The position numbers and the translations under genes were made by a program. The notes under the pieces are model-generated. The model saw nothing but the letters and a program-made list of their open reading frames with translations, did not search any database and was not told the origin of the DNA. A stretch of DNA of 10,723 nucleotides from Candidatus Altiarchaeota archaeon (GTDB taxonomy: Archaea; Altiarchaeota; Altiarchaeia; IMC4; SCGC-AAA252-I15). The stretch lies in the NCBI GenBank assembly GCA_043804895.1, contig JAZDIN010000038.1, forward strand, positions 1 to 10,723. The letters run 5' to 3'. Shown here piece by piece: positions 1 to 9,868 of this stretch (its first letter is position 1; every line of letters starts with the position of its first letter).

Positions 1-292
1 CCTGGAAGGATGCACAGTACTAGTTGAAGGCAGAAAGGACGAGGAAGCCCTAATCCGACTAGGCGTAGAACCAGAAAACATAGTCGTCCTACACAAAGGC
101 CAGACAATCCTCGACACAATCGAAGCACTCCAAGGCCGAGAAGTAGCAATACTAACCGACATGGACCAGGAAGGCAAAATAATGCGACACAGACTCCTCA
201 AACAATTCAGCATGTACGGCATAACCGAGAACAAAAGACCCCGCGAACTATTCGCAAAACTAAGACTAAGCCACGTCGAAGGACTTAAATAG
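1..292 (+). CDS. TOPRIM domain protein (small primase-like / RNase M5-like), 5'-truncated by the window edge
   Basis: Not in the ORF track; translated manually. Frame 2 is open from the window start to TAG at 290-292: LEGCTVLVEGRKDEEALIRLG...EVAILTDMDQEGKIMRHRL...LSHVEGLK*. It contains the TOPRIM VEGxxD and DxD (TDMDQEG) motifs. Confidence 0.88.
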   Translation, partial: LEGCTVLVEGRKDEEALIRLGVEPENIVVLHKGQTILDTIEALQGREVAILTDMDQEGKIMRHRLLKQFSMYGITENKRPRELFAKLRLSHVEGLK

Positions 293-323
293 CTATTGTT
301 AATTGTAATAACGGTGTTTTGAT

Positions 324-554
324 ATGAAAGTCAAATATGACAGTGAGGTGGATGCGGCGTACGTCTACTTCAATGGCAAGATAAGTCCCGGCGAGGTGAA
401 ACAGACAATCACCCTAAACAACAGCCTAATCGTGGACCTTGACCGCAAAGGCAAGCTACTCGGCCTTGAGATCCTTGACGCCAGCCGGAACCTCACCAAA
501 CAAGCCCTCGGCGAATTCTCCCACTCTAAGAAACCGCACGTAACGACCGTATGA
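324..554 (+). CDS. DUF2283 domain-containing protein
   Basis: 76 aa: MKVKYDSEVDAAYVYF...LIVDLDRKGKLLGLEILDAS matches the DUF2283 pattern YDxxxDxxYI...xDxDxxGxxxGxEIxxAS. An SD-like GGTG lies at 313-316. Confidence 0.9.
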   Translation: MKVKYDSEVDAAYVYFNGKISPGEVKQTITLNNSLIVDLDRKGKLLGLEILDASRNLTKQALGEFSHSKKPHVTTV

Positions 555-570
555 CTGACTCAACCATGCT

Positions 571-583
571 GAAGGCTTTAATT
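571..583 (+). promoter_or_regulatory. Putative archaeal BRE/TATA promoter for the 606 gene
   Basis: Purine-rich GAAGG followed by TTTAATT (577-583), ending 22 nt before ATG 606. This spacing is typical of leaderless archaeal transcripts. Confidence 0.45.
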
Positions 584-605
584 CTCATCCTTCCCGATAT
601 ATGTC

Positions 606-1613
606 ATGGGAGTCGTTGCTCGTAAGCCGCCTTTTGAGGAGGACCCAGAGTTAGCCAAGAGGCTTGGCGAGCTTTACCCTGCTGCCATAAGCAGGTCCCC
701 TAAGAACATCCAGGTCGCTGAGAGGGACTTCGTGAAAATCGCCTTAAAGGACCCTACTGTCAACAAAGCCTTAAGTACACTGGGAGAAATTACTCCCGAG
801 AGATTCTTGCGCGATTACTTCGGAAGACGACATATGGACGAACTCACCTCTGGGGTTAGTGATTTCAAAGAGCTACCCCCCCTTCATACTGCCACCATGC
901 CTTTAGTTGAAGGTGACGAGGATTTGGTGACAAAGCACCCATATGTAGTGTCTGTGTCCACTCAAAAATTCTCGGAGTTGCCAATCAAAAATGGCTTTGA
1001 GCTAACAGATTATGGGAATGAAGTTTTTGATGTGGTTGCTGCTACATTAAGTAGACGGGTCAATCAGCCACTGAAGGTGTTATTCATCGGCCCCGGCCGT
1101 GGCATTGAGGTCTACGATCTTATCCGTCGCTTCGGCGACCGGATTGACGTCAGTATACTGGCCAAGGAAAATCTGCTAGCGAATCCGAGATACCTTTATA
1201 TGCGTTCAGGAAATCTATTTCCCCTCTCCTCACCCCAGGAGGCTAAGGTCTATGTCGAGAAGATGAAGGATGCACAGAAAATCGGGAATCTTGAGGATAT
1301 GAGTTTGTTCAGGGATGGGGAGTTTGACCTCGTCGTCTTCGGGTTAGGCACAATCTTCCATGGTTCGAACCTCAACCCGGCTTTGAATGAGGCTAAGAGG
1401 GTCCTTGTTCATGGCGGGACTGCAGTAATGCCTTTGAAGGATGTTAGAAACGCTTTCGATAATAAGCAGTCAGACGCTGACTCACCCAGCATTCATGGGA
1501 CTATCGACCCGGTAAGTCGCCTGTGTGAAAACAATGACTGTTGTTCACACACAACCTTCTCGTTCATGTTGACCAACAAGAATCCTGGTGAAAGAATCAA
1601 TACTCCCCTCTAA
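606..1613 (+). CDS. Class I SAM-dependent methyltransferase-like protein with a long N-terminal extension
   Basis: Gly-rich motif I-like LKVLFIGPGRG, then GNLEDMSLFRDGEFDLVV and LNPALNEAKRVLVHGGTAV, matching the Methyltransf_11-type FxDxxFDxV and AxxExxRVLKPGG motifs. The 3' end overlaps the convergent gatE by 17 bp. Confidence 0.7.
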   Translation: MGVVARKPPFEEDPELAKRLGELYPAAISRSPKNIQVAERDFVKIALKDPTVNKALSTLGEITPERFLRDYFGRRHMDELTSGVSDFKELPPLHTATMPLVEGDEDLVTKHPYVVSVSTQKFSELPIKNGFELTDYGNEVFDVVAATLSRRVNQPLKVLFIGPGRGIEVYDLIRRFGDRIDVSILAKENLLANPRYLYMRSGNLFPLSSPQEAKVYVEKMKDAQKIGNLEDMSLFRDGEFDLVVFGLGTIFHGSNLNPALNEAKRVLVHGGTAVMPLKDVRNAFDNKQSDADSPSIHGTIDPVSRLCENNDCCSHTTFSFMLTNKNPGERINTPL

Positions 1614-3435
1614 TCATCTCTCCAACAGCTTGTGCATCAGCTCTTCCTTTAACTTGCGCCATGATTTTGCCTGTGAGTTGGCCTTTGTTTAGTCCTGGGT
1701 TTTCTGTTTTTACTTTTTTGATTATCTTCTCCAGTTCGGCCTCGGATAGTATTGTCATGTCGTTCTCCTGAGCTGTCTTCTCGACCGGCTGCAATGGTTT
1801 CTCGCAGACTTTTGCGATAAGGTCTACGACTGCATTCTTGGATATCCGGCCGTCCGCGATAAGCTTTAAGATTTGCCTGTAGTGGTCTTCGCCAATCTTC
1901 GACACGTCAGCCGCGTATCTTTTTGCTGCCTCCTTCGGCGCCGACGTTATTGTCGTCGCTATGGCTGTCGGTGGCACGTTCGTGAACTCATCAACAAACG
2001 ATTCGAATAGCCCAGCTTCCCCTGATTTTGATAGTTGCGATGCAAGCTCCGCGCCTAATCCCAATTCAACGTACCTCTTCGCCTTATCCTCCCTCAGCTC
2101 TGGCAGATGTGAAGAGATGTCGGCGAGCATGTCACTGCCGACTGGAATCAGAAGCTCATCAGTCTCTGGGTACATCCTGTTGCTTCCTGGAAGCGGCCTC
2201 ATGAACTCCGTGGAGCCGTCTTCGTTTGCCTTCCTCGTCTCCACAGGGACTCCATCCAATGCAATCTTGCACCTTCCGAGCACTGCGTTCAAGGCCTTCT
2301 CAGCCTGCTCCTCTGGTGCTGCGACCAGGACGTATGAGTCGTATCCTGAGACGTCTAGTGCTTTGATGACTGAATCAACCTCTGTTGGGCTTATCCCGTA
2401 TGCGGGCAGCTCATCTCCGTGGAACACGCCTTTGACTCCCGCCATGGCGCGTGCATACTGGGCAACCTGCGGCCCGAACTTACCCTTAAGGAGGCTCTTG
2501 AGGCCTTTTAGTGGGACCCCCAATACGACTCCCTTATTTTCCAATGCTTTGCGCATCACAGTCGAATGTGTTCCTGTGAAAAGAGTGGAAACGTCAGTAG
2601 GCCTGGCATCATACTCTCCTTTCTTTACGCCGCGGCTCATCAGCTCCTTCCTCACTTCAATCAGCATCACCTGCCTCTCAACTTCTCCTTCGACAAGTTT
2701 TGCTATGAGTCTCAGGTCTTGGACGCCCTTCACCTCAACACGCGTCCCATCCCTTATGGACACGTTCAAGTCCTGCCTTATCGTACCAAGGCCTCTCTTC
2801 ACCTTGCTTGCACGGAGTATGGACCCGATTTTCTCGGCCACTTCCCTCGCATGTTGCGGATTTTTTATCTCAGGGTTGGTGGCTATCTCAATCAAAGGTA
2901 TCCCCAGCCTGTCAAGACGGTAGCGTACTGTCCCCCCCTCCTCGCTTATTATCCTCGCAGCATCCTCTTCAAGGCAGATGGTCGGTATACGCACAGGGCC
3001 CTCCGATGTCTCGACTACTCCATCTTCGGCTACGAGCATCGTCCTTTGGAATCCGCTAGTGTTGCTCCCGTCAATGACCGTCTTCCTCATCACATGGACT
3101 TCGTCGACAGGCCTGGCCTTCAGAAGCAAGGCAACCTCTAAAACAGTCCTGAGGGCCTCTCCATTGATGTTGTGGGGTGGCTCCTCATCCAATTCGACAA
3201 GGCAGTTAGTATCAAAATAGGCCTCATATACGAGTGTCCTGTCCCTTAGGAACTCGTGTAAGGCAGCCGGGTCAACGTTCCCGAGCTCCCCTGCGACGGC
3301 CCTCATCCTCCTCTCAACCTGTATGTCCGGCTTCTCATCGCGGGTGATTGAGGGGCAGGAGCAGAACAGCTTATGCGTGTCAAGCTGCTGGTGAATCTCT
3401 ATCCCGCATTTGAATCCTAGCTTCTGGTAGTCCAT
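1597..3435 (-). CDS. gatE: Glutamyl-tRNA(Gln) amidotransferase subunit E
   Basis: 612 aa starting MDYQKLGFKCGIEIHQQLDTHKLFCSCP. Contains CLVELDEEPPH, MRKTVIDGSNTSGFQRT, CLEEDAAR, LDRLGIPLIEIAT, RGLGTIRQDLNVSI, EVKGVQ, an insert domain with HGDELPAYGI, RPLPGSNRMYPETD and a C-terminal helical tail. Confidence 0.98.
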   Translation of the reverse strand: MDYQKLGFKCGIEIHQQLDTHKLFCSCPSITRDEKPDIQVERRMRAVAGELGNVDPAALHEFLRDRTLVYEAYFDTNCLVELDEEPPHNINGEALRTVLEVALLLKARPVDEVHVMRKTVIDGSNTSGFQRTMLVAEDGVVETSEGPVRIPTICLEEDAARIISEEGGTVRYRLDRLGIPLIEIATNPEIKNPQHAREVAEKIGSILRASKVKRGLGTIRQDLNVSIRDGTRVEVKGVQDLRLIAKLVEGEVERQVMLIEVRKELMSRGVKKGEYDARPTDVSTLFTGTHSTVMRKALENKGVVLGVPLKGLKSLLKGKFGPQVAQYARAMAGVKGVFHGDELPAYGISPTEVDSVIKALDVSGYDSYVLVAAPEEQAEKALNAVLGRCKIALDGVPVETRKANEDGSTEFMRPLPGSNRMYPETDELLIPVGSDMLADISSHLPELREDKAKRYVELGLGAELASQLSKSGEAGLFESFVDEFTNVPPTAIATTITSAPKEAAKRYAADVSKIGEDHYRQILKLIADGRISKNAVVDLIAKVCEKPLQPVEKTAQENDMTILSEAELEKIIKKVKTENPGLNKGQLTGKIMAQVKGRADAQAVGEMIRGEY

Positions 3436-3535
3436 AAGCGATGAAACCGCCCTCCTTTATGGGGCGGTAAATATGTGTATCTATTATACGGTTTCAAGCT
3501 TATCAAACCGGCGACTTTAGTCGCCGGTATTGATA
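3436..3535. mobile_element. Putative miniature palindrome-pair element (non-autonomous IS200/IS605-like or REP-like); alternatively a structured gatE leader
   Basis: Two related hairpins in the same orientation: ACCGCCC(3446-3452)/GGGCGGT(3462-3468) and TATCAA-ACCGGCGAC(3501-3515)-TTTA-GTCGCCGGT-A-TTGATA(3520-3535). Both follow the pattern AT(G/C)AAACCG...CTTTA...CGGTA. No transposase is present in the window. Confidence 0.5.
3501..3535. repeat. Near-perfect inverted repeat (15-bp stem, 1-nt bulge, TTTA loop)
   Basis: tatcaa-accggcgac-ttta-gtcgccggt-a-ttgata read directly from the sequence. Confidence 0.95.
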
Positions 3536-3767
3536 CTCCCTACAATATGGTATTAAAGTATTTTATAATGAATCCACAAGGCCATTGGCAGGCTTGAAGG
3601 ACATCAGAGTCCAGGACAGCAAAGAACCGCTCCAACAGCTACTGTACGACACACCAACAGGCAACGGGTAAAACACCCCCCTACAACTGGAAGGCGCCGA
3701 AGACAAGGTAAGGGCTGAGTTTTAACCTGTTTTGGCCTAATTTATTACAGTATTGCCTATATGTATA

Positions 3768-6700
3768 ATGTTCAAAATGCCCCTGGTTTTTCGCGATTAT
3801 TCTGCCGACGGAGGCGGAGAGGAGATATACGATGTCGGCCCAATAGAAGCCACCACCCCTCTACAGAGATTCTTCAATAAAATCGGTTTGAAGGTTCCTG
3901 TAGTATGGCTGCCTAAATTCGGCAAGGTGGACATGTCTAAGTGGGCAGTCATAGCATGCGACCAGAAGACAGCCGACGAAAAGTATTGGGAAGACGTTGA
4001 TACTCTCGTAGGCGACTCCCCCTCCACCCTCAGGACGATACTCCCTGAAATACACTTAGGGAAGAAAGACAAACTACATAGGGTGCGTAAAATACATTCC
4101 GCAATGCGCGATTACCTGAGAAGTGGCATATTGACTCCGCAGAAGCCGGGGTTCGTTCTCGTCGACAGGGAGACATCCACCGGACACAGGCATGGTCTGG
4201 TTGTCGCATTAGATTTGGAGCAATACGACTACAGTCCTGACTCCACAAGCCTTATTCGGCCAACTGAGGGCACAATACCTGAGAGGATTCCACCGCGAAA
4301 GGAGATACGGGAAGGCGCACCCATGGAAGTTCCGCACATCATGGTGTTGATTGACGACCCTGAGGACACGGTCATAGGACCACTGTCTAAAAAGGCCTCT
4401 GATTTTAATCAACTCTACGACTTTGACCTGATGCTCGGCGGAGGCCACATCAACGGCCGCCTCATAGACGACCCTAAGGTGATATCTGAAATAGCGAAGG
4501 CGCTGGGGGCTCTCGCAGACCCTCAGGTGTGCATGGAAAAATATGGGGCTCCCAGGGAGAAGTGTAATGCGCTGTATTTCGTCGGCGACGGGAATCACTC
4601 CCTCGCGACAGCGAAGGCTATCTGGGAGGAGAAGAAAAGACTGGCCGGCGGCTTGGATGCCGTGAAGGATGACCCGGCGCGCTACGCCCTTGTCGAATTG
4701 GTGAACATTCACGACTCGTCTCTGAAGTTCGAGCCGATACACCGGGTCCTCTACAACGTTGGTTTCCAGAACATGCTGCAGGAGATGGAGTCCTTCTATG
4801 AGAAACAGGGTTCAAAATTCTCATATCACCCCTTCGAGATTAACACAGAATACGAGAAATACCTTAAAGAGAAATCAGAGGACGGCAGCCACATCATCTC
4901 TACAACATCAAGCCAGGGATTCGGGGTGATAGTCGTCGAAAAACCCAAATCCAACCTCACAGTCGACACGTTACAGTCTTTCCTAGACTACTACCTCAAA
5001 CATTATAACGGCCCTAGTCTGGATTACGTGCATGAGCCTGATATCGTCGCCGTTCACGGCGCTGACCCGGAAAAAAGCAACGTAAGCTTCTTCCTACCTC
5101 CACTCAACAAAAATGAACTTGTTAGATACATAATAGAGCACGGCCCCCTGCCGAGGAAGACGTTCTCTATGGGCGAGGCAGAAGATAAGAGATACTATCT
5201 GGAAGGTAGGGTCATATCCCCTGAAGACGTGAATCCGGAGGCTAAAACAAAATCTAAACCGCCGGCGTTCACAAACTACCGTGTCTCAAAGGTTAAATTG
5301 GTTTCATCCCATGTGGAATTCACATCAGATTCGGCTGAAAAATATGTGCTGGAAAGAGGCATACTTACTCCTCTAGAGGGTTCTCCTGGCTTTTACGCCG
5401 GCCTTCCTTTAAGTGGCGCTCCATCAATCATCTTCCCATCTGGTATTCCTAAGGGGCTTTTGCAGCTTACTGGCCATGATACCTCAAATGATGACGACTC
5501 TAGAATACATGAGCGCTCAATGTATTACAATGGTATAGTCCTCAAGGGAGGCGGTAAAAGGACAAATGATGGCGATAAAAATTATGGCAAGGACAAATGT
5601 AAAGTTCACATACCATTTACATACTTCGAGGACCGTCTGGGGACCCGTATGTACTGGGGTTTTCTGACAGAGAGGGAGGTACAACAGAATATCGCAGCTG
5701 CAGAAAGAATAACGTCCGAATATAAGACTGCCTCTGATGAGGGCGACCCAGTATTCACAAAACTTAAAAGTGAGCTTGGCATAGACGACCCCCGCATTAT
5801 GTGGCCCCTCTTCACAGCGACACCCCATGCATGGCCGGTATATTTTAACTTTGCGGAAGGTATGGACCGGATTGACTCGATTCCCGATGAAATAAAGGGT
5901 AACCTGTCTGAGCAGGATTTGGAGTTGATATCCAAGATACCTAGCAACAAGTTCATAATACCGGTGGATACTGACAAGGTAATCAGGATGAGTGGAATAC
6001 CTCCGGATGCCGGGGAGCCGGTTGTCCTGGGCTACTCAGTTACACAGAACCTCAGGCTTAATGAAATGGGATCAATCTTCTACTCACATTATTGGAACCA
6101 GAAGGATACCTCCAACTGGTTTAAGGCTTTCGAGGATGCGGGCTACCGGCTTGAACTGGCTGAAGGCAAAACCAAACCAGAAAGCATCGGCGACCTTAAA
6201 GTCTCCTCCATTGAAACAGGACAGGATGTCTCATACGAGGAGGCGCGTGACCAGGTGTTGGAGCGCTTCGCAGGTTTCCTTGCGCTCCGTTACCATCTGA
6301 TAACCAACAGGCTGGGTGGGACTCAGACTGGCTATCTAAGATGGGGTACGGTCAATTTATCTCCCGGACAACCTATGCACACCAGCGTCCTGATGGAACA
6401 TAATGCTATAGTCACGGGTGATGCTGTTGACCTGTCCGATGTTGGATTCCCTCCTCTATTTGAAAAAGGCGAAAAAAGAGCGGAATTAGGGTCTGGAAGA
6501 CATGCAACCCCAGAGGCATACCAAAAATACGACCGAGAGAAAAGCATGGGATTGATAAAAATGGCGGCTCGCCTCATGATGACTCCTGAGGAGCTCGGGA
6601 GACAGCGCACGGAAGTGGATACCCCCTACCAAAATTTACATAACTTCGAAGAGGAAGCCATTGAAATGTACCCTGACAAACTTAAGGTCATCACATCAGA

Positions 6701-6770
6701 AAAAGCCATAGACCTCTTCAATCAAGCAGTAAATTTAGGCCGCGAATACATGGCTAGCAGACAGTCATGA
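3768..6770 (+). CDS. Fusion protein: DUF1015 domain plus a C-terminal ~500-aa putative SelO/protein-kinase-like domain
   Basis: Numbering from 3753, residues ~44-489 (nt ~3882-5219) carry DUF1015 motifs: KWAVIACDQ, IRPTEGTIPERIPPR, PHIMVLIDD, LYDFDLMLGGGH, GDGNHSLATAK, ELVNIHD, FEPIHR, LPRKTFSMGEAEDKRYYLEGR. The frame then runs on without a stop through IVLKGGG and HNAIVTGDAVDL. The ORF track start at 3753 is TTG; ATG 3768 or 3777 is more likely, with TTTATTA at 3741-3747 upstream. Confidence 0.85.
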   Translation: MFKMPLVFRDYSADGGGEEIYDVGPIEATTPLQRFFNKIGLKVPVVWLPKFGKVDMSKWAVIACDQKTADEKYWEDVDTLVGDSPSTLRTILPEIHLGKKDKLHRVRKIHSAMRDYLRSGILTPQKPGFVLVDRETSTGHRHGLVVALDLEQYDYSPDSTSLIRPTEGTIPERIPPRKEIREGAPMEVPHIMVLIDDPEDTVIGPLSKKASDFNQLYDFDLMLGGGHINGRLIDDPKVISEIAKALGALADPQVCMEKYGAPREKCNALYFVGDGNHSLATAKAIWEEKKRLAGGLDAVKDDPARYALVELVNIHDSSLKFEPIHRVLYNVGFQNMLQEMESFYEKQGSKFSYHPFEINTEYEKYLKEKSEDGSHIISTTSSQGFGVIVVEKPKSNLTVDTLQSFLDYYLKHYNGPSLDYVHEPDIVAVHGADPEKSNVSFFLPPLNKNELVRYIIEHGPLPRKTFSMGEAEDKRYYLEGRVISPEDVNPEAKTKSKPPAFTNYRVSKVKLVSSHVEFTSDSAEKYVLERGILTPLEGSPGFYAGLPLSGAPSIIFPSGIPKGLLQLTGHDTSNDDDSRIHERSMYYNGIVLKGGGKRTNDGDKNYGKDKCKVHIPFTYFEDRLGTRMYWGFLTEREVQQNIAAAERITSEYKTASDEGDPVFTKLKSELGIDDPRIMWPLFTATPHAWPVYFNFAEGMDRIDSIPDEIKGNLSEQDLELISKIPSNKFIIPVDTDKVIRMSGIPPDAGEPVVLGYSVTQNLRLNEMGSIFYSHYWNQKDTSNWFKAFEDAGYRLELAEGKTKPESIGDLKVSSIETGQDVSYEEARDQVLERFAGFLALRYHLITNRLGGTQTGYLRWGTVNLSPGQPMHTSVLMEHNAIVTGDAVDLSDVGFPPLFEKGEKRAELGSGRHATPEAYQKYDREKSMGLIKMAARLMMTPEELGRQRTEVDTPYQNLHNFEEEAIEMYPDKLKVITSEKAIDLFNQAVNLGREYMASRQS

Positions 6771-6795
6771 TATCAGTCTAGTCGCCGGTCAGATA
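6771..6795. repeat. Degenerate partial copy of the 3501-3535 hairpin
   Basis: TAGTCGCCGGT at 6779-6789 is identical to 3518-3528. It is flanked by TATCA (6771-6775) and GATA (6792-6795), as in the intact copy. Confidence 0.5.
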
Positions 6796-6802
6796 ATATA
6801 GT

Positions 6803-9800
6803 CTATTCTACTAGGTCAGACCAGTCGTCATCTGACAGTATTCGTAATCCCGAGCCTGGTTTGTCTTGACTTGGGGGTGGCGGCCGGTAAGGTGGTTCCT
6901 CCTCCAGTTGCTGTAGGCTTGAACCGCACGGCGTTTCTATAAGGCCCCCTCCCCCTAAAACATCGCTGTAGATTGTTACATTACGACTTTCCTTGAGTTT
7001 GTATGCGCATATGCCCCGCATATGTGAGATATTAATGCCTACCTTATTCGCCTTTTCTCTAAGGGCTCTGTCGAACTCTTCGATGTATTCCTCCCTTTCC
7101 GGATAGCTTTTCTCCGGCATCAATAGCGGTTGGTTCATTACTCCCCTTATGCACCTGAAAACTTCACGAGCTTCCACGTCACTAACCCCAACCAACTCCC
7201 CTTTTTCATCATACAATGGCGGGCCGATAATGAACTGCTTGGAAAAAGCGTCTGCAGGGTAACTGGGGAGGGCTTTGTTCTGGTCTGTCCCTTCAGTCCA
7301 CCTCTGGCATGTTCGAACAGGTCTTGTGCCCACCTGAATCATGTCAAAAAGGTCGTCTGTCTCAACTAACGCCCTAGTGCCTGTTTTCTTCCCCGACTCT
7401 GTTCTAAACTCCTCTTGGAAGTTTTCCATGTCCACCTGCGGTTCCTTAAGCTTTAATTCGGTAAGCGACTGTCTCACTGATCTCACCCAATCCATAGTCT
7501 TGTGTGCCGGGATGCTGGGGTCATCCATGGCCTTTCTCAATGAAATGAACCTCTCCGCCAGCACTCTTTGCGAATCCAACCTCGCGTATCTCTTCCACAT
7601 CTCTTTTCTTTCGCTATCACCTACAGTCCCCCTTATCCTATCTTTGAGGCTCCTCGTTTCCTCTTTAACTCTATTTACATATTCCTCGGAAATGTTAATG
7701 CCAAGCTCATCTTTCACGTGTCTTTCCGTGCTTTCTAAGATGCCATTCAGCGCCTTAAGCTTGCTTTTTTGTGACGGTGGTATGACATAGATTATCTTAG
7801 CGGAATCTTTACTCCACTCCCTCCTCTGTTCCTCCGTCAGGAACTCCAACTGTTCTGCCCCCTGGCCTCCATACCTCCACTCTTTCCATCTGCCTTCGAC
7901 ATAAGGCTTTATCATCTCCGTAATTAAACTCATTTGTCTTTCAGGCATGAAACTGGATAAACTGGATAGTATCTCCAGTAAATTTGTTTCAGTGGCTGCT
8001 GGATGCTCAGACAGCAACTTCTTGTGTTTTTTACTCAAACCGAGTCTTTTAGTACTGATGCCCATTGCTTTGTCAACAAGCTTTTTTTTGTAATCAACTG
8101 GTTGTTCGAATTTAGGATAATAATCCTCTCCAAGATTTCTCAGGGTCATGGTCCATTGTATTATGGAATCTGCCTCTCCTCCTGTCACACCTTCCAGATT
8201 CTTTAGAAGTTCCCCTTTGGGTCTCGTCCACATATTGCCTACGTAGTGGACTAAGTGTCTAATAGCGTCTTTGTTGCGTGATACTGACTCCCAGTCTAAC
8301 TTAAGGTTTTTCCCATCAAACTCTGGGATGCTCTTCAAGCACAGGAACACAGGCAATGGGATGTGCTCGTTTTCTCTAACCTCCTCTGGCGAAGATTTAA
8401 CATTGCTGACGCAACTGTTGAATACATTCCAAAAGTCATACTCTAATCTGCCGAGCGAAGTCAGTTTAGAACCTACGTACTTCAAATCACCCAGGTTCTT
8501 TATAACTCCTGCACTGCAGCATGCAGACACTCCATTCCACACAACCTGCTCTCCATTTTCATACTTCCTGGCAGTTATTCCAATCAGTATTTTTCCAGCA
8601 GCTTCTACCTCCTCTAAGTCTTTGATTGCTCTAGCGTCGACTAACCTCCCCAAAGCATACAATACTGCACCCGAGTTTTCCCCCGAATCCTCTACTATGT
8701 GCTTTAGGGTCTCATCTGCTTTCTTAATCGTTTCAGCGTCCTTTACAATACCAGTTCTTGCGAATGCGGGTAATATCGATCGCAATACATCCTCCTTAGC
8801 TTTCTCATCCACTACAGTTAACCCCTTCAACGCTCCACCTAACTCTAACATGGTTGGTATGTCCTTGAGCATACCTACTTCTGCAAAAGCTGGTAGGGTG
8901 TGCACTAACACCTCATTGCTATTCTCCCCCATGTCATCCGATATGCTCACTAACGCATCACCAGCTTCCTTTAGCATGCGCATGTTCTCATCGTTATCAC
9001 CGTAGTCCTTCACTATCCCTGCTGTTGCGCAGGCTCTCAGTCCACAATCCATCATGTTGTATTCGTACCCTATGTCCTGCTTTTTCCGAGATGCTTTTTC
9101 CACAATCCTATTCAATACCTTCCCAGCTTTCAGCAGTGACTTCTGGTCCCCTTCTTTGTATATTCCAACTTCCTTGCAAAGTGGCAAACCATATCTTAAG
9201 ACTGGTATAACCTCCCCCTTTGAATCGCGAATAATCTCCTTAACGGTTCTTAATGTTTCATTGTCTGTGATGACTCCCCCCTCCCTGCAATCGCTCAGAC
9301 CATGAATAACAATGCTATAAACATCCTCTCGCGACAGTGGCAACTCTATTATCTCCTTTAATATCCTCAATGACTCGTTGTCCCTTATAATCCCTGCGCG
9401 TTTGCATATACTCAAGCCATCTTGAATCATATTGTCACATTTATCTCCAGAAGCTTCGACTATGTCCCTGATTATTGCAAGCGACTGAACATCCGTAATC
9501 ACGCCTTCTTTTGCGCAAGCGCTTAGTCCGCCTCTCAGCACATATGCGTCCTTTTCCCCGGCCGATTTCTCAATCCCCTCGATGTGTTCCGAGCCTAGAA
9601 TCATAATGTCCTCTACGCCTGCATAATCCTTAAAGTCAAGGGCGCCATAATGTCTCTCCCTAATCCCATCAATCCTCTTAAGATGCTGTTTTAGTGTCCC
9701 ACTGTCAACTTTTGACAGTTTTTCAGCCGTTCTTTCCGCAGCTTCAGGGCTTAAACCCAGTTTTTGGAGTTTTCTCTTTAGTTGTTGGGATGGCATGGTG

Positions 9801-9868
9801 TTAGGCAGATTCCCCCCGATGTCCGTAGGGCTCTCATCCACTCTAACGCCAACTACGTTTTGCATCAT
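6803..9868 (-). CDS. Large hypothetical protein: nine tandem helical repeats plus a C-terminal Cys-containing putative enzymatic domain
   Basis: 1021-aa uninterrupted ORF with repeats at aa ~110-472. The C-terminal region has WKEWRY, ETDDLFDMIQVGTRPVRTCQ, NKALPSYPAD, AREVFR, EKSY and YSD. A TATA box sits at canonical distance upstream. Confidence 0.85.
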   Translation of the reverse strand: MMQNVVGVRVDESPTDIGGNLPNTMPSQQLKRKLQKLGLSPEAAERTAEKLSKVDSGTLKQHLKRIDGIRERHYGALDFKDYAGVEDIMILGSEHIEGIEKSAGEKDAYVLRGGLSACAKEGVITDVQSLAIIRDIVEASGDKCDNMIQDGLSICKRAGIIRDNESLRILKEIIELPLSREDVYSIVIHGLSDCREGGVITDNETLRTVKEIIRDSKGEVIPVLRYGLPLCKEVGIYKEGDQKSLLKAGKVLNRIVEKASRKKQDIGYEYNMMDCGLRACATAGIVKDYGDNDENMRMLKEAGDALVSISDDMGENSNEVLVHTLPAFAEVGMLKDIPTMLELGGALKGLTVVDEKAKEDVLRSILPAFARTGIVKDAETIKKADETLKHIVEDSGENSGAVLYALGRLVDARAIKDLEEVEAAGKILIGITARKYENGEQVVWNGVSACCSAGVIKNLGDLKYVGSKLTSLGRLEYDFWNVFNSCVSNVKSSPEEVRENEHIPLPVFLCLKSIPEFDGKNLKLDWESVSRNKDAIRHLVHYVGNMWTRPKGELLKNLEGVTGGEADSIIQWTMTLRNLGEDYYPKFEQPVDYKKKLVDKAMGISTKRLGLSKKHKKLLSEHPAATETNLLEILSSLSSFMPERQMSLITEMIKPYVEGRWKEWRYGGQGAEQLEFLTEEQRREWSKDSAKIIYVIPPSQKSKLKALNGILESTERHVKDELGINISEEYVNRVKEETRSLKDRIRGTVGDSERKEMWKRYARLDSQRVLAERFISLRKAMDDPSIPAHKTMDWVRSVRQSLTELKLKEPQVDMENFQEEFRTESGKKTGTRALVETDDLFDMIQVGTRPVRTCQRWTEGTDQNKALPSYPADAFSKQFIIGPPLYDEKGELVGVSDVEAREVFRCIRGVMNQPLLMPEKSYPEREEYIEEFDRALREKANKVGINISHMRGICAYKLKESRNVTIYSDVLGGGGLIETPCGSSLQQLEEEPPYRPPPPSQDKPGSGLRILSDDDWSDLVE
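8453..9541 (-). repeat. Protein-level tandem repeat, 9 units of 37-49 aa
   Basis: Unit starts: VLRGGLSACAKEGVITD, MIQDGLSICKRAGIIRD, IVIHGLSDCREGGVITD, VLRYGLPLCKEVGIYKE, MMDCGLRACATAGIVKD, VLVHTLPAFAEVGMLKD, VLRSILPAFARTGIVKD, VLYALGRLVDARAIKD, VVWNGVSACCSAGVIKN. Confidence 0.9.

Follow-up and report, generated by a model that had tools for sequence, protein, structure and literature searches.

A fused two-domain gene on an altiarchaeal contig

The 10,723-base stretch of DNA analyzed here (GenBank contig JAZDIN010000038.1, from a Candidatus Altiarchaeota archaeon; hereafter the window) is the whole of contig C38 of a 71-contig, 1.58-Mb archaeal metagenome-assembled genome (MAG) with a completeness of 88.7%. 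Its genes, as annotated with the help of Pfam and NCBIfam, are a Toprim fragment, a methyltransferase, GatE, a fusion gene, a 1021-amino-acid (aa) open reading frame (ORF), and an SBF transporter. The fusion gene, which is the subject of this study, joins a DUF1015 domain to a domain of a protein-kinase-like (PKL) family whose predicted fold lies closest to that of SelO/YdiU (Table 1). We regard it as a real-looking fusion that is a singleton and constitutes a new domain architecture. In the ORF listing its frame runs on the plus strand from 3753 to 6770, or 1005 codons counted from a TTG. No in-frame stop interrupts this frame, and where the two domains meet, both alternative frames are closed by stops.

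Table 1. Coordinates of the fusion gene, its domains and motifs, and the convergent gene downstream (residues are numbered on the 1000-aa protein)
Feature	Position (nt)	Strand	Remarks
Fusion gene	3768..6770	+	1000 aa from the first ATG (3768), 997 aa from ATG 3777 (public database protein); stop codon counted in
DUF1015/SerBK-type domain, aa 1-483	3768..5216	+	Pfam match aa 54-408; natural end KRYYLEGRVI
WAVIACDQ motif, aa 59-66	3942..3965	+	Invariant columns of alignment A3
GDGNHS motif, aa 273-278	4584..4601	+	Invariant columns of alignment A3
Linker SPEDVNPEAKTKSKPP, 16 aa	5217..5264	+	Between DUF1015 end and PKL domain
PKL domain, undescribed family	5262..6767	+	Fold closest to SelO/YdiU (AF2 model, VIA-align)
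H581-x-R583 and F-x-F-K593-G-x-G	5508..5546	+	Putative phosphate-binding loop and beta3 Lys (Lys 9/10)
R763 and E766 in Y..P...R..E motif	6054..6065	+	Arg 10/10; Glu 9/10, Asp 1
N879 and D888 in H-N-x4-G-x2-V-D-(Y/L)-D	6402..6431	+	Putative Mg2+ ligands
Convergent repeat protein, 1021 aa	6803..9868	-	~6 repeats (~40 aa) of 'C..AG[VI]I.D'

The N-terminal half of the protein matches the Pfam DUF1015 profile (PF06245) with an E value of 8.7e-58 and a score of 196.2 bits (gathering cut-off, 25.8), covering positions 7-324 of the 325 in the profile. Pfam recognizes nothing besides DUF1015 in the fusion protein, and NCBIfam has no match to it. The initial annotation of this DNA had named a WAVIACDQ motif, a DG(N/H)H signature, and a KRYYLEGRVI end; these recur as W-x3-A-C-D-Q, G-D-G-N-H-S, and a C-terminal K-x2-Y-x-E-x-R, all of them in invariant columns of a six-sequence alignment (A3), and the fused copy keeps all 84 invariant columns, as it must by construction of the alignment. 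The same genome encodes a stand-alone DUF1015 paralogue of 444 aa on contig C4 that is 54% identical to the fused half, and other Altiarchaeota hold stand-alone copies of 425 aa (G006) and 469 aa (G005). The stand-alone proteins end in ...KR(Y/F)Y(I/V/L)ECRKIV(E)*, and the fusion reads KRYYLEGRVI and then continues in frame through the linker. The alignment and the intact ORF confirm the original description of a complete DUF1015 domain fused at its natural C terminus to some 500 further residues.

The linker itself preserves what may be traces of an older arrangement. It holds a GTG at 5229-5231, the aligned position at which stand-alone members of the PKL family start, and a GAA codon at 5223-5225 that is one substitution away from TAA; no homopolymer longer than four nucleotides (nt) occurs at the junction. 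It is possible that the GTG is a relic, or an internal start, of a formerly separate second gene, and its location, together with the near-stop GAA, fits the fusion of two abutting genes by stop loss.

A role for the DUF1015 half can be proposed from the work of Price et al. (bioRxiv 10.1101/2024.10.14.618325). In that preprint the DUF1015 protein CBO1128 is reported to complement E. coli serB, BT1151 matters in growth on serine, and the predicted DUF1015 structure resembles the serine kinase SbnI in Foldseek comparisons, with ATP docking also performed. The authors name the family SerBK, use serA/serC gene context to define it, and state that its biochemistry and activity are still unproven. 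The ParB/Srx-like (SbnI/SerK-like) fold ascribed to DUF1015 likewise comes from Price et al., and a sequence search of the PDB with the DUF1015 half or with profile A3 found no match. Like the SerBK proteins CDIF630erm_01132, CBO1128, and BT1151, the fusion has a full-length PF06245 domain with WAVIACDQ and GDGNHS, and it resides in a genome in which no SerB was found above the cut-off (in an 88.7%-complete MAG). It differs from them in having no serA or serC nearby, in being a second copy in its genome, and in carrying ~517 extra C-terminal residues. The C4 paralogue (in locus L007, G000:C4:128943-133274) has another setting and follows, on the same strand, genes for a HAD hydrolase and a FolE2-type GTP cyclohydrolase; a gene for a Pol-beta nucleotidyltransferase lies convergently downstream of it. 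HAD, nucleotidyltransferase, and folate (FolD) domains are also fusion partners of DUF1015 elsewhere.

A rare kinase-like family in the C-terminal half

The C-terminal half is a genuine conserved domain and not read-through junk; the family is real because 10 aligned members carry conserved motifs. A phmmer search of 1.84 billion representative sequences returned five proteins at E <= 1e-3, the fusion itself included, and among them two stand-alone relatives, P0003 (E 2e-8) and P0005 (E 3.9e-5), with lengths of 427 and 434 aa. A single-sequence search of 61 genomes of the phylum yielded one relative, a stand-alone protein of 683 aa (G022), and a profile search placed the domain in 6 of the 61, the window genome included. 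Further members are either stand-alone proteins of 374-724 aa or the C termini of very long frames of 1,947 and 1,778 aa. The family that the C-terminal half defines is one without a Pfam model, and its members occur in Altiarchaeota alone or at the end of very long proteins. We consider it undescribed, and none of the papers listed on SelO-like or archaeal kinase-like proteins concerns it.

Two of the candidate relatives were set aside: P0006, a J-domain-like repeat protein, was judged spurious, and a seventh genome match (G005) in an earlier profile search proved to be an aspartyl-tRNA synthetase false positive. Another of the phmmer matches, the 4,799-aa Paulinella micropora protein P0004 (eukprot), has seven stretches that match residues 295-356 of the C-terminal half (E 1e-7); these residues make up a small helix-strand insert within the PKL domain, one that may be a separate mobile module. 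Scans of contigs with profile A1 confirmed 1 of 98 candidate stretches in genome contigs, 1 of 340 in metagenome contigs, and 0 of 216 in viral contigs, the last giving no viral relative. For the metagenome contig L009, FtsZ identities of 53-60% to all families gave no placement. A word-indexed homology search with the C-terminal half or A1 recovered only the protein itself and is insensitive here because it missed P0003 and P0005; a search of the ESM Atlas with the C-terminal half gave no usable match. The stand-alone PKL members have no conserved neighborhood and are set among housekeeping genes. In the two long frames, one cut by its contig end (L022, G017:C27:3-5843; 1,947 aa) and the other at G010:C71 (L023, locus 1195-6528; 1,778 aa), the last ~430 residues form the PKL domain; the N-terminal part of the former gives sub-threshold HEAT hints, that of the latter has no Pfam match, and neither protein matches a PADLOC family.

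We modeled the C-terminal half with AlphaFold 2 (AF2) from the alignment of 10 family sequences, which are 17-29% identical to the window protein. The model reached a predicted local distance difference test score (pLDDT) of 73.4 and a predicted template modeling score (pTM) of 0.79; a model from the single sequence (pLDDT 38) was unusable. When 48,161 representative chains were scanned with VIA-align, the best match was P. syringae SelO (6eac_A), with a Z score of 11.9 and a root-mean-square deviation (rmsd) of 3.9 Å over 266 residues; the best 50 rows were all kinase-like folds, and after SelO no Z score exceeded 9.4. Foldseek by itself found nothing at E <= 1e-3; the entries that it ranked highest were 6iii (probability 0.90) and YdiU entries (probability 0.66-0.69) at E 0.04-0.09, followed by kinases and by synthetases of the NRPS-independent siderophore (NIS) type. 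Rescoring of the Foldseek candidates placed five SelO/YdiU entries at ranks 1-5, with Z scores of 13.9, 13.8, 12.5, 12.3, and 11.9, ahead of 9.4 at rank 6. The SelO match spans model residues ~16-517 and lies 2.5-4.5 Z units above ordinary kinases. Hanks-type kinases (PF00069) share the bilobal fold, and dozens of them score Z 8.0-9.4, but these scores fall below those of SelO, and the PKL half has neither a match to the Pkinase hidden Markov model nor an HRD Asp. Among the structure neighbors of P0005 in the ESM Atlas are one SelO-domain cluster and one of MchC, together with Kdo/WaaP kinases; all fall below the threshold at which the tool assigns a name, and we treat them as leads only.

The closest known system is SelO/YdiU (UPF0061, PF02696), an AMPylating or UMPylating pseudokinase, matched through entries 6eac, 6k20, 6iii, 9jym, and 9l29 (Z 11.9-13.9, rmsd 3.6-4.3 Å, 256-266 residues, 9-12% identity). 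According to PMC7359531 and PMC8097203, SelO was formerly called a pseudokinase itself; its contacts to the gamma-phosphate are K113 and R176, of which K113 is in turn held by E136, N253 and D262 bind Mg2+, D252 acts as the base, and there is no HRD Asp. In the PKL family, H581, R583, Y756, R763, and D888 are present in all 10 members, and K593, E766, and N879 in nine, the tenth apparently having its Asn shifted by one alignment column. K593 sits at a strand end in the AF2 model, with Leu in its place in one member, and we infer that it is the equivalent of SelO K113; R763 and E766 would contact phosphate or partner the Lys. The lone, non-significant hhalign alignment (probability 1.8%) sets H-N879...D888-Y-D..G-F on ...T-D-N...D-Y-G-P-F-G-F of SelO. 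Set against the SelO site as a whole (K113/E136/R176/D252/N253/D262), candidates for the Lys, the Asn, and the Asp are conserved in 9-10 of the 10 members, and the residue before the Asn is not Asp. As in SelO, the HRD Asp is missing: in the 10-sequence alignment no Asp ahead of the Asn is conserved. The PKL family differs from SelO/YdiU in its extra inserts, in its other partners (DUF1015 and very long proteins), and in having been seen, in the searches made here, only in Altiarchaeota-type archaea; Dudkiewicz et al. examined 107 archaeal genomes and report SelO from 3, each of them euryarchaeal. As modeled, the C-terminal half is SelO-like in its fold and in some of its site residues, yet it is not a SelO family member that sequence comparison can detect. 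The suggestion made at the outset that the partner domain is a putative nucleotidyl- or phosphotransferase is supported by this kinase-like model, whose fold is closest to that of an AMPylase.

Rarity and origin of the architecture

The initial annotation held that DUF1015 proteins normally stand alone at ~420-450 aa. The related genomes, with their copies of 425-469 aa, fit that description, but long forms of DUF1015 are numerous and many of them are fusions. Among 7,998 scored candidates of 550-1750 aa, the DUF1015 half had 247 matches at E <= 1e-5, of which 12 were checked for domain positions. The fusion partners among the matches listed include FolD (in dinoflagellates and other eukaryotes), Maf (in gut bacteria), HAD, low-molecular-weight (LMW) phosphatase, GHMP kinase, cytidylate kinase, polyphosphate kinase (PPK), NUDIX, Pol-beta nucleotidyltransferase, and aspartate kinase, among others. 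In sequence data, DUF1015 is commonly joined to enzymes that handle nucleotides or phosphate, and what is unusual in the window is the kinase-like partner: the fusion resembles the other DUF1015 fusions in the kind of enzyme joined and differs from all of them in having a PKL domain. In the papers listed for DUF1015 or SerBK we found no discussion of such fusions. Bacterial DUF1015 proteins of ~950 aa were considered as a possible second instance of the architecture and rejected, the tails of P0084 and P0093 being charged, repetitive, and of low complexity. Four such proteins from bacterial metagenomes (P0084, P0092, P0093, and P0094; 943-968 aa) have a DUF1015 domain followed by a ~520-aa tail without a second Pfam domain; in P0084 and P0093 the tail is built of 'LSRRELKxLKRQQ'-like units and represents a different, unexplained extension of DUF1015.

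The two halves of the gene also differ in composition, and not in the direction first supposed. We compared codon usage with that of 669 long ORFs of the genome, and the DUF1015 half is native by this measure, whereas the kinase-like half and the convergent 1021-aa gene are atypical. The DUF1015 half has a G+C content at third codon positions (GC3) of 0.607, in the 25th percentile, and a relative synonymous codon usage (RSCU) distance in the 9th; the flanking GatE gene is comparable (GC3 0.598, 22nd percentile; RSCU distance, 13th), and the flanking SBF transporter gene is native-like as well (GC3 0.67). The kinase-like half and the 1021-aa gene share a GC3 of 0.489, in the 4th percentile, with RSCU distances in the 94th and 84th percentiles, respectively. 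The proposal in the initial annotation that the DUF1015 half was horizontally acquired is not supported by these values: that half uses codons much as the rest of the genome does, and the C-terminal half is the atypical part. Within the fusion ORF, the best change point in GC3 falls at codon ~470, as compared with codon 483 for the junction, with a log-likelihood gain of ~8.

A second link between the PKL half and its convergent neighbor comes from sequence comparison, residues 50-163 of the 1021-aa protein matching an N-terminal extension of the PKL member G022:C87 (28% identity, E 2e-11). The 1021-aa ORF matches nothing in Pfam, PADLOC, or PHROG and has only weak relatives, in 3 of the 60 other genomes of the phylum; the ideas that it is itself kinase-like, or that it matches the carbamoyl-phosphate synthetase beside the G022 homologue, were rejected. 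On these grounds we read 5217-9868 as an atypical block. The 1021-aa gene was possibly acquired together with the PKL half, and the block was possibly acquired as a whole and joined to a resident DUF1015 paralogue. The fusion could then have arisen when an atypical PKL gene and the repeat-protein gene came to lie directly after that paralogue and its stop codon was subsequently lost, possibly at the present GAA at 5223-5225, in which case the GTG at 5229 would be the former start.

The phylogeny of the DUF1015 half, which the initial annotation had suggested as a check, was run on 40 representatives sharing less than 62% identity, drawn from 123 domain sequences; nearly all of these are long forms, so the tree does not represent the family at large. 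In it, the copies of G006 and G005 form a group with the C4 paralogue (support 92/86). The fused copy falls outside that group, beside the dinoflagellate FolD fusions, in a position without support (70/32), and the approximately unbiased (AU) test does not reject a clade of the fused copy and the C4 paralogue (p 0.41). The end branch of the fused copy is twice as long as that of the C4 paralogue (0.54 against 0.27). The tree is compatible both with an in-lineage duplication and with another origin of the fused DUF1015 domain.

A possible built-in regulator of a SerBK-type enzyme

The reading that we favor is that the fusion pairs a working SerBK-type domain with a SelO-like, Mg-nucleotide-dependent transferase acting on protein, to which we assign a probability of roughly 40%. 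The gene would be a natural single-gene fusion encoding a two-domain enzyme. Its DUF1015 half would act in the manner of SerBK, as an ATP- or ADP-dependent serine/phosphoserine phosphotransferase, and its kinase-like half would bind an Mg-nucleotide and move a nucleotidyl group (as SelO does) or a phosphoryl group onto a protein hydroxyl. The most plausible target would be the tethered DUF1015 domain or its partners, so that the kinase-like half would covalently regulate, from within the same protein, a SerBK copy that is second and spare. The housekeeping role would fall to the stand-alone C4 copy. The presence of PKL domains at the ends of proteins of 1,778-1,947 aa, one of them with HEAT hints, fits an enzyme directed at protein. 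A bolder form of this reading, which strikes us as rather improbable, is that the C-terminal half founds a new branch, in archaea, of the SelO-like 'pseudokinases' that transfer nucleotidyl groups, and that by covalent modification it switches the tethered serine/phosphoserine phosphotransferase on or off. If that were true, the protein would be a self-contained writer-plus-target enzyme and the first handle on how the activity of DUF1015/SerBK, or its direction (kinase versus phosphatase-like), is controlled.

DUF1015 has only lately been proposed as SerBK, a serine kinase able to replace phosphoserine phosphatase, and Price et al. leave its chemistry and its direction of flux unresolved; the SelO-like fusion offers a testable hint that SerBK may be coupled to covalent, nucleotide-dependent regulation. 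The PKL family also lengthens the short list of SelO-like folds, SelO itself being rare in archaea. The fusion hints at a built-in regulator and does not prove one, and its weight as a hint is limited because it is a singleton and its two families do not otherwise travel together.

Several observations count against the favored reading. On the side of the kinase-like half, none of the 10 members matches any Pfam family at E <= 10, PF02696 and Pkinase included; neither a profile search of the PDB with A2 nor a sequence search with the C-terminal half found a match; the hhalign comparison of the family profile with E. coli SelO, at a probability of 1.8%, is not significant; and the AF2 model depends on only 10 sequences. 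In the 10-sequence alignment, the position of SelO D252 is occupied by H, Q, K, P, or L, and no alpha-C Glu is conserved; for these reasons catalysis by the PKL half is only putative. On the side of the association, no second protein with PKL and DUF1015 domains was found, either with the C-terminal half among proteins of 550-1750 aa or among the 1.84 billion representatives. The search for the same architecture in other archaeal MAGs that had been recommended earlier was made with both families in the 61 phylum genomes and likewise found none. The five other genomes with the PKL family (G010, G011, G015, G017, and G022) have no DUF1015 match, the three other genomes with DUF1015 (G005, G006, and G008) have no PKL match, and none of four genomes of the same genus carries either half. 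Since the families co-occur in the window genome only, there is no general functional dependence between them. Finally, the Pfam and NCBIfam gene content of the window includes neither serA, serC, nor any other ser gene, just as the initial annotation had noted.

The best of the competing explanations, although a doubtful one, is that the fusion is a two-step metabolic enzyme whose domains catalyze consecutive steps. The substrate of the kinase-like half would then be a small molecule, for example serine, phosphoserine, or a metabolite related to them, adenylated or phosphorylated at a carboxylate or hydroxyl. The known partners of DUF1015 are indeed mostly small-molecule, nucleotide, or phosphate enzymes, the NIS synthetases SbnC, AcsD, and IucA appear among the structural matches at Z 8.6-9.3, and the ESM-Atlas neighbors include MchC and the Kdo/WaaP kinases. 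SelO/YdiU entries clearly outscore the small-molecule enzymes, however; a position at the end of proteins of 1,778-1,947 aa would be unusual for a metabolic enzyme, and the families do not co-occur in the other eight genomes that have either.

We think it unlikely that the kinase-like half is instead a true pseudokinase, a non-catalytic nucleotide sensor or scaffold that gates or localizes the DUF1015 enzyme. Such a role would accommodate the missing HRD Asp, the lack of an equivalent to the D252 base and of a conserved alpha-C Glu, and the Leu that replaces the Lys in one member. It sits poorly with the retention of a His, two Arg, a Tyr, and an Asp in all 10 members, and of a Lys, a Glu, and an Asn in nine, at identities of 17-29%, a pattern suggestive of conservation at an active or ligand site; SelO, too, was once labeled a pseudokinase in the literature cited above. 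Less likely still is a non-functional fusion of two adjacent genes whose products are made separately, the second starting at GTG 5229, with the join due either to an error of consensus or assembly or to a very recent stop loss, an explanation that draws on the singleton architecture, on that GTG at the stand-alone start position and the linker GAA one substitution from TAA, on the composition shift near the junction (codon ~470 as opposed to 483), and on the strain variants in the sample (97-98% identity between window positions 1-603 and contig C29), but that has to contend with a continuous frame without a homopolymer longer than four at the junction, with the two joins that a chimeric contig would need because native-like genes (GatE and SBF) flank the atypical block on both sides, and with the fact that even two separate genes would form a tight operon in which the association would stand.

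An Rfam scan of the window found no family, a promoter and terminator scan gave no more than shuffled sequences did (its models are bacterial-type and ill-suited to archaea), and PADLOC and PHROG scans assigned no family to the fusion, the 1021-aa neighbor, or the methyltransferase. The gatE gene is present in three of four same-genus genomes, though with different neighbors, and the fusion in none of them. In one of these genomes (G003; L045, C35) a Toprim gene lies ~90 nt from gatE, without the 335-aa methyltransferase that separates them in the window, where the methyltransferase gene (606-1613, plus strand) overlaps the 3' end of gatE by 17 nt. Window positions 1-603 align with the last ~650 bases of contig C29 at 97-98% identity over 1-282 and 475-603, with no match in between, and C29 terminates where the window methyltransferase gene starts; this overlap suggests that strain variants were assembled together and that the locus varies. 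The intergenic space that separates gatE from the fusion gene contains an element of ~100 nt (3433-3535) with hairpins, one of them a perfect 10-nt stem with arms at 3507-3516 and 3519-3528; the element recurs six times elsewhere in the same genome at 82-92% identity, on contigs C24, C4, C3, C35, and C7 (twice).

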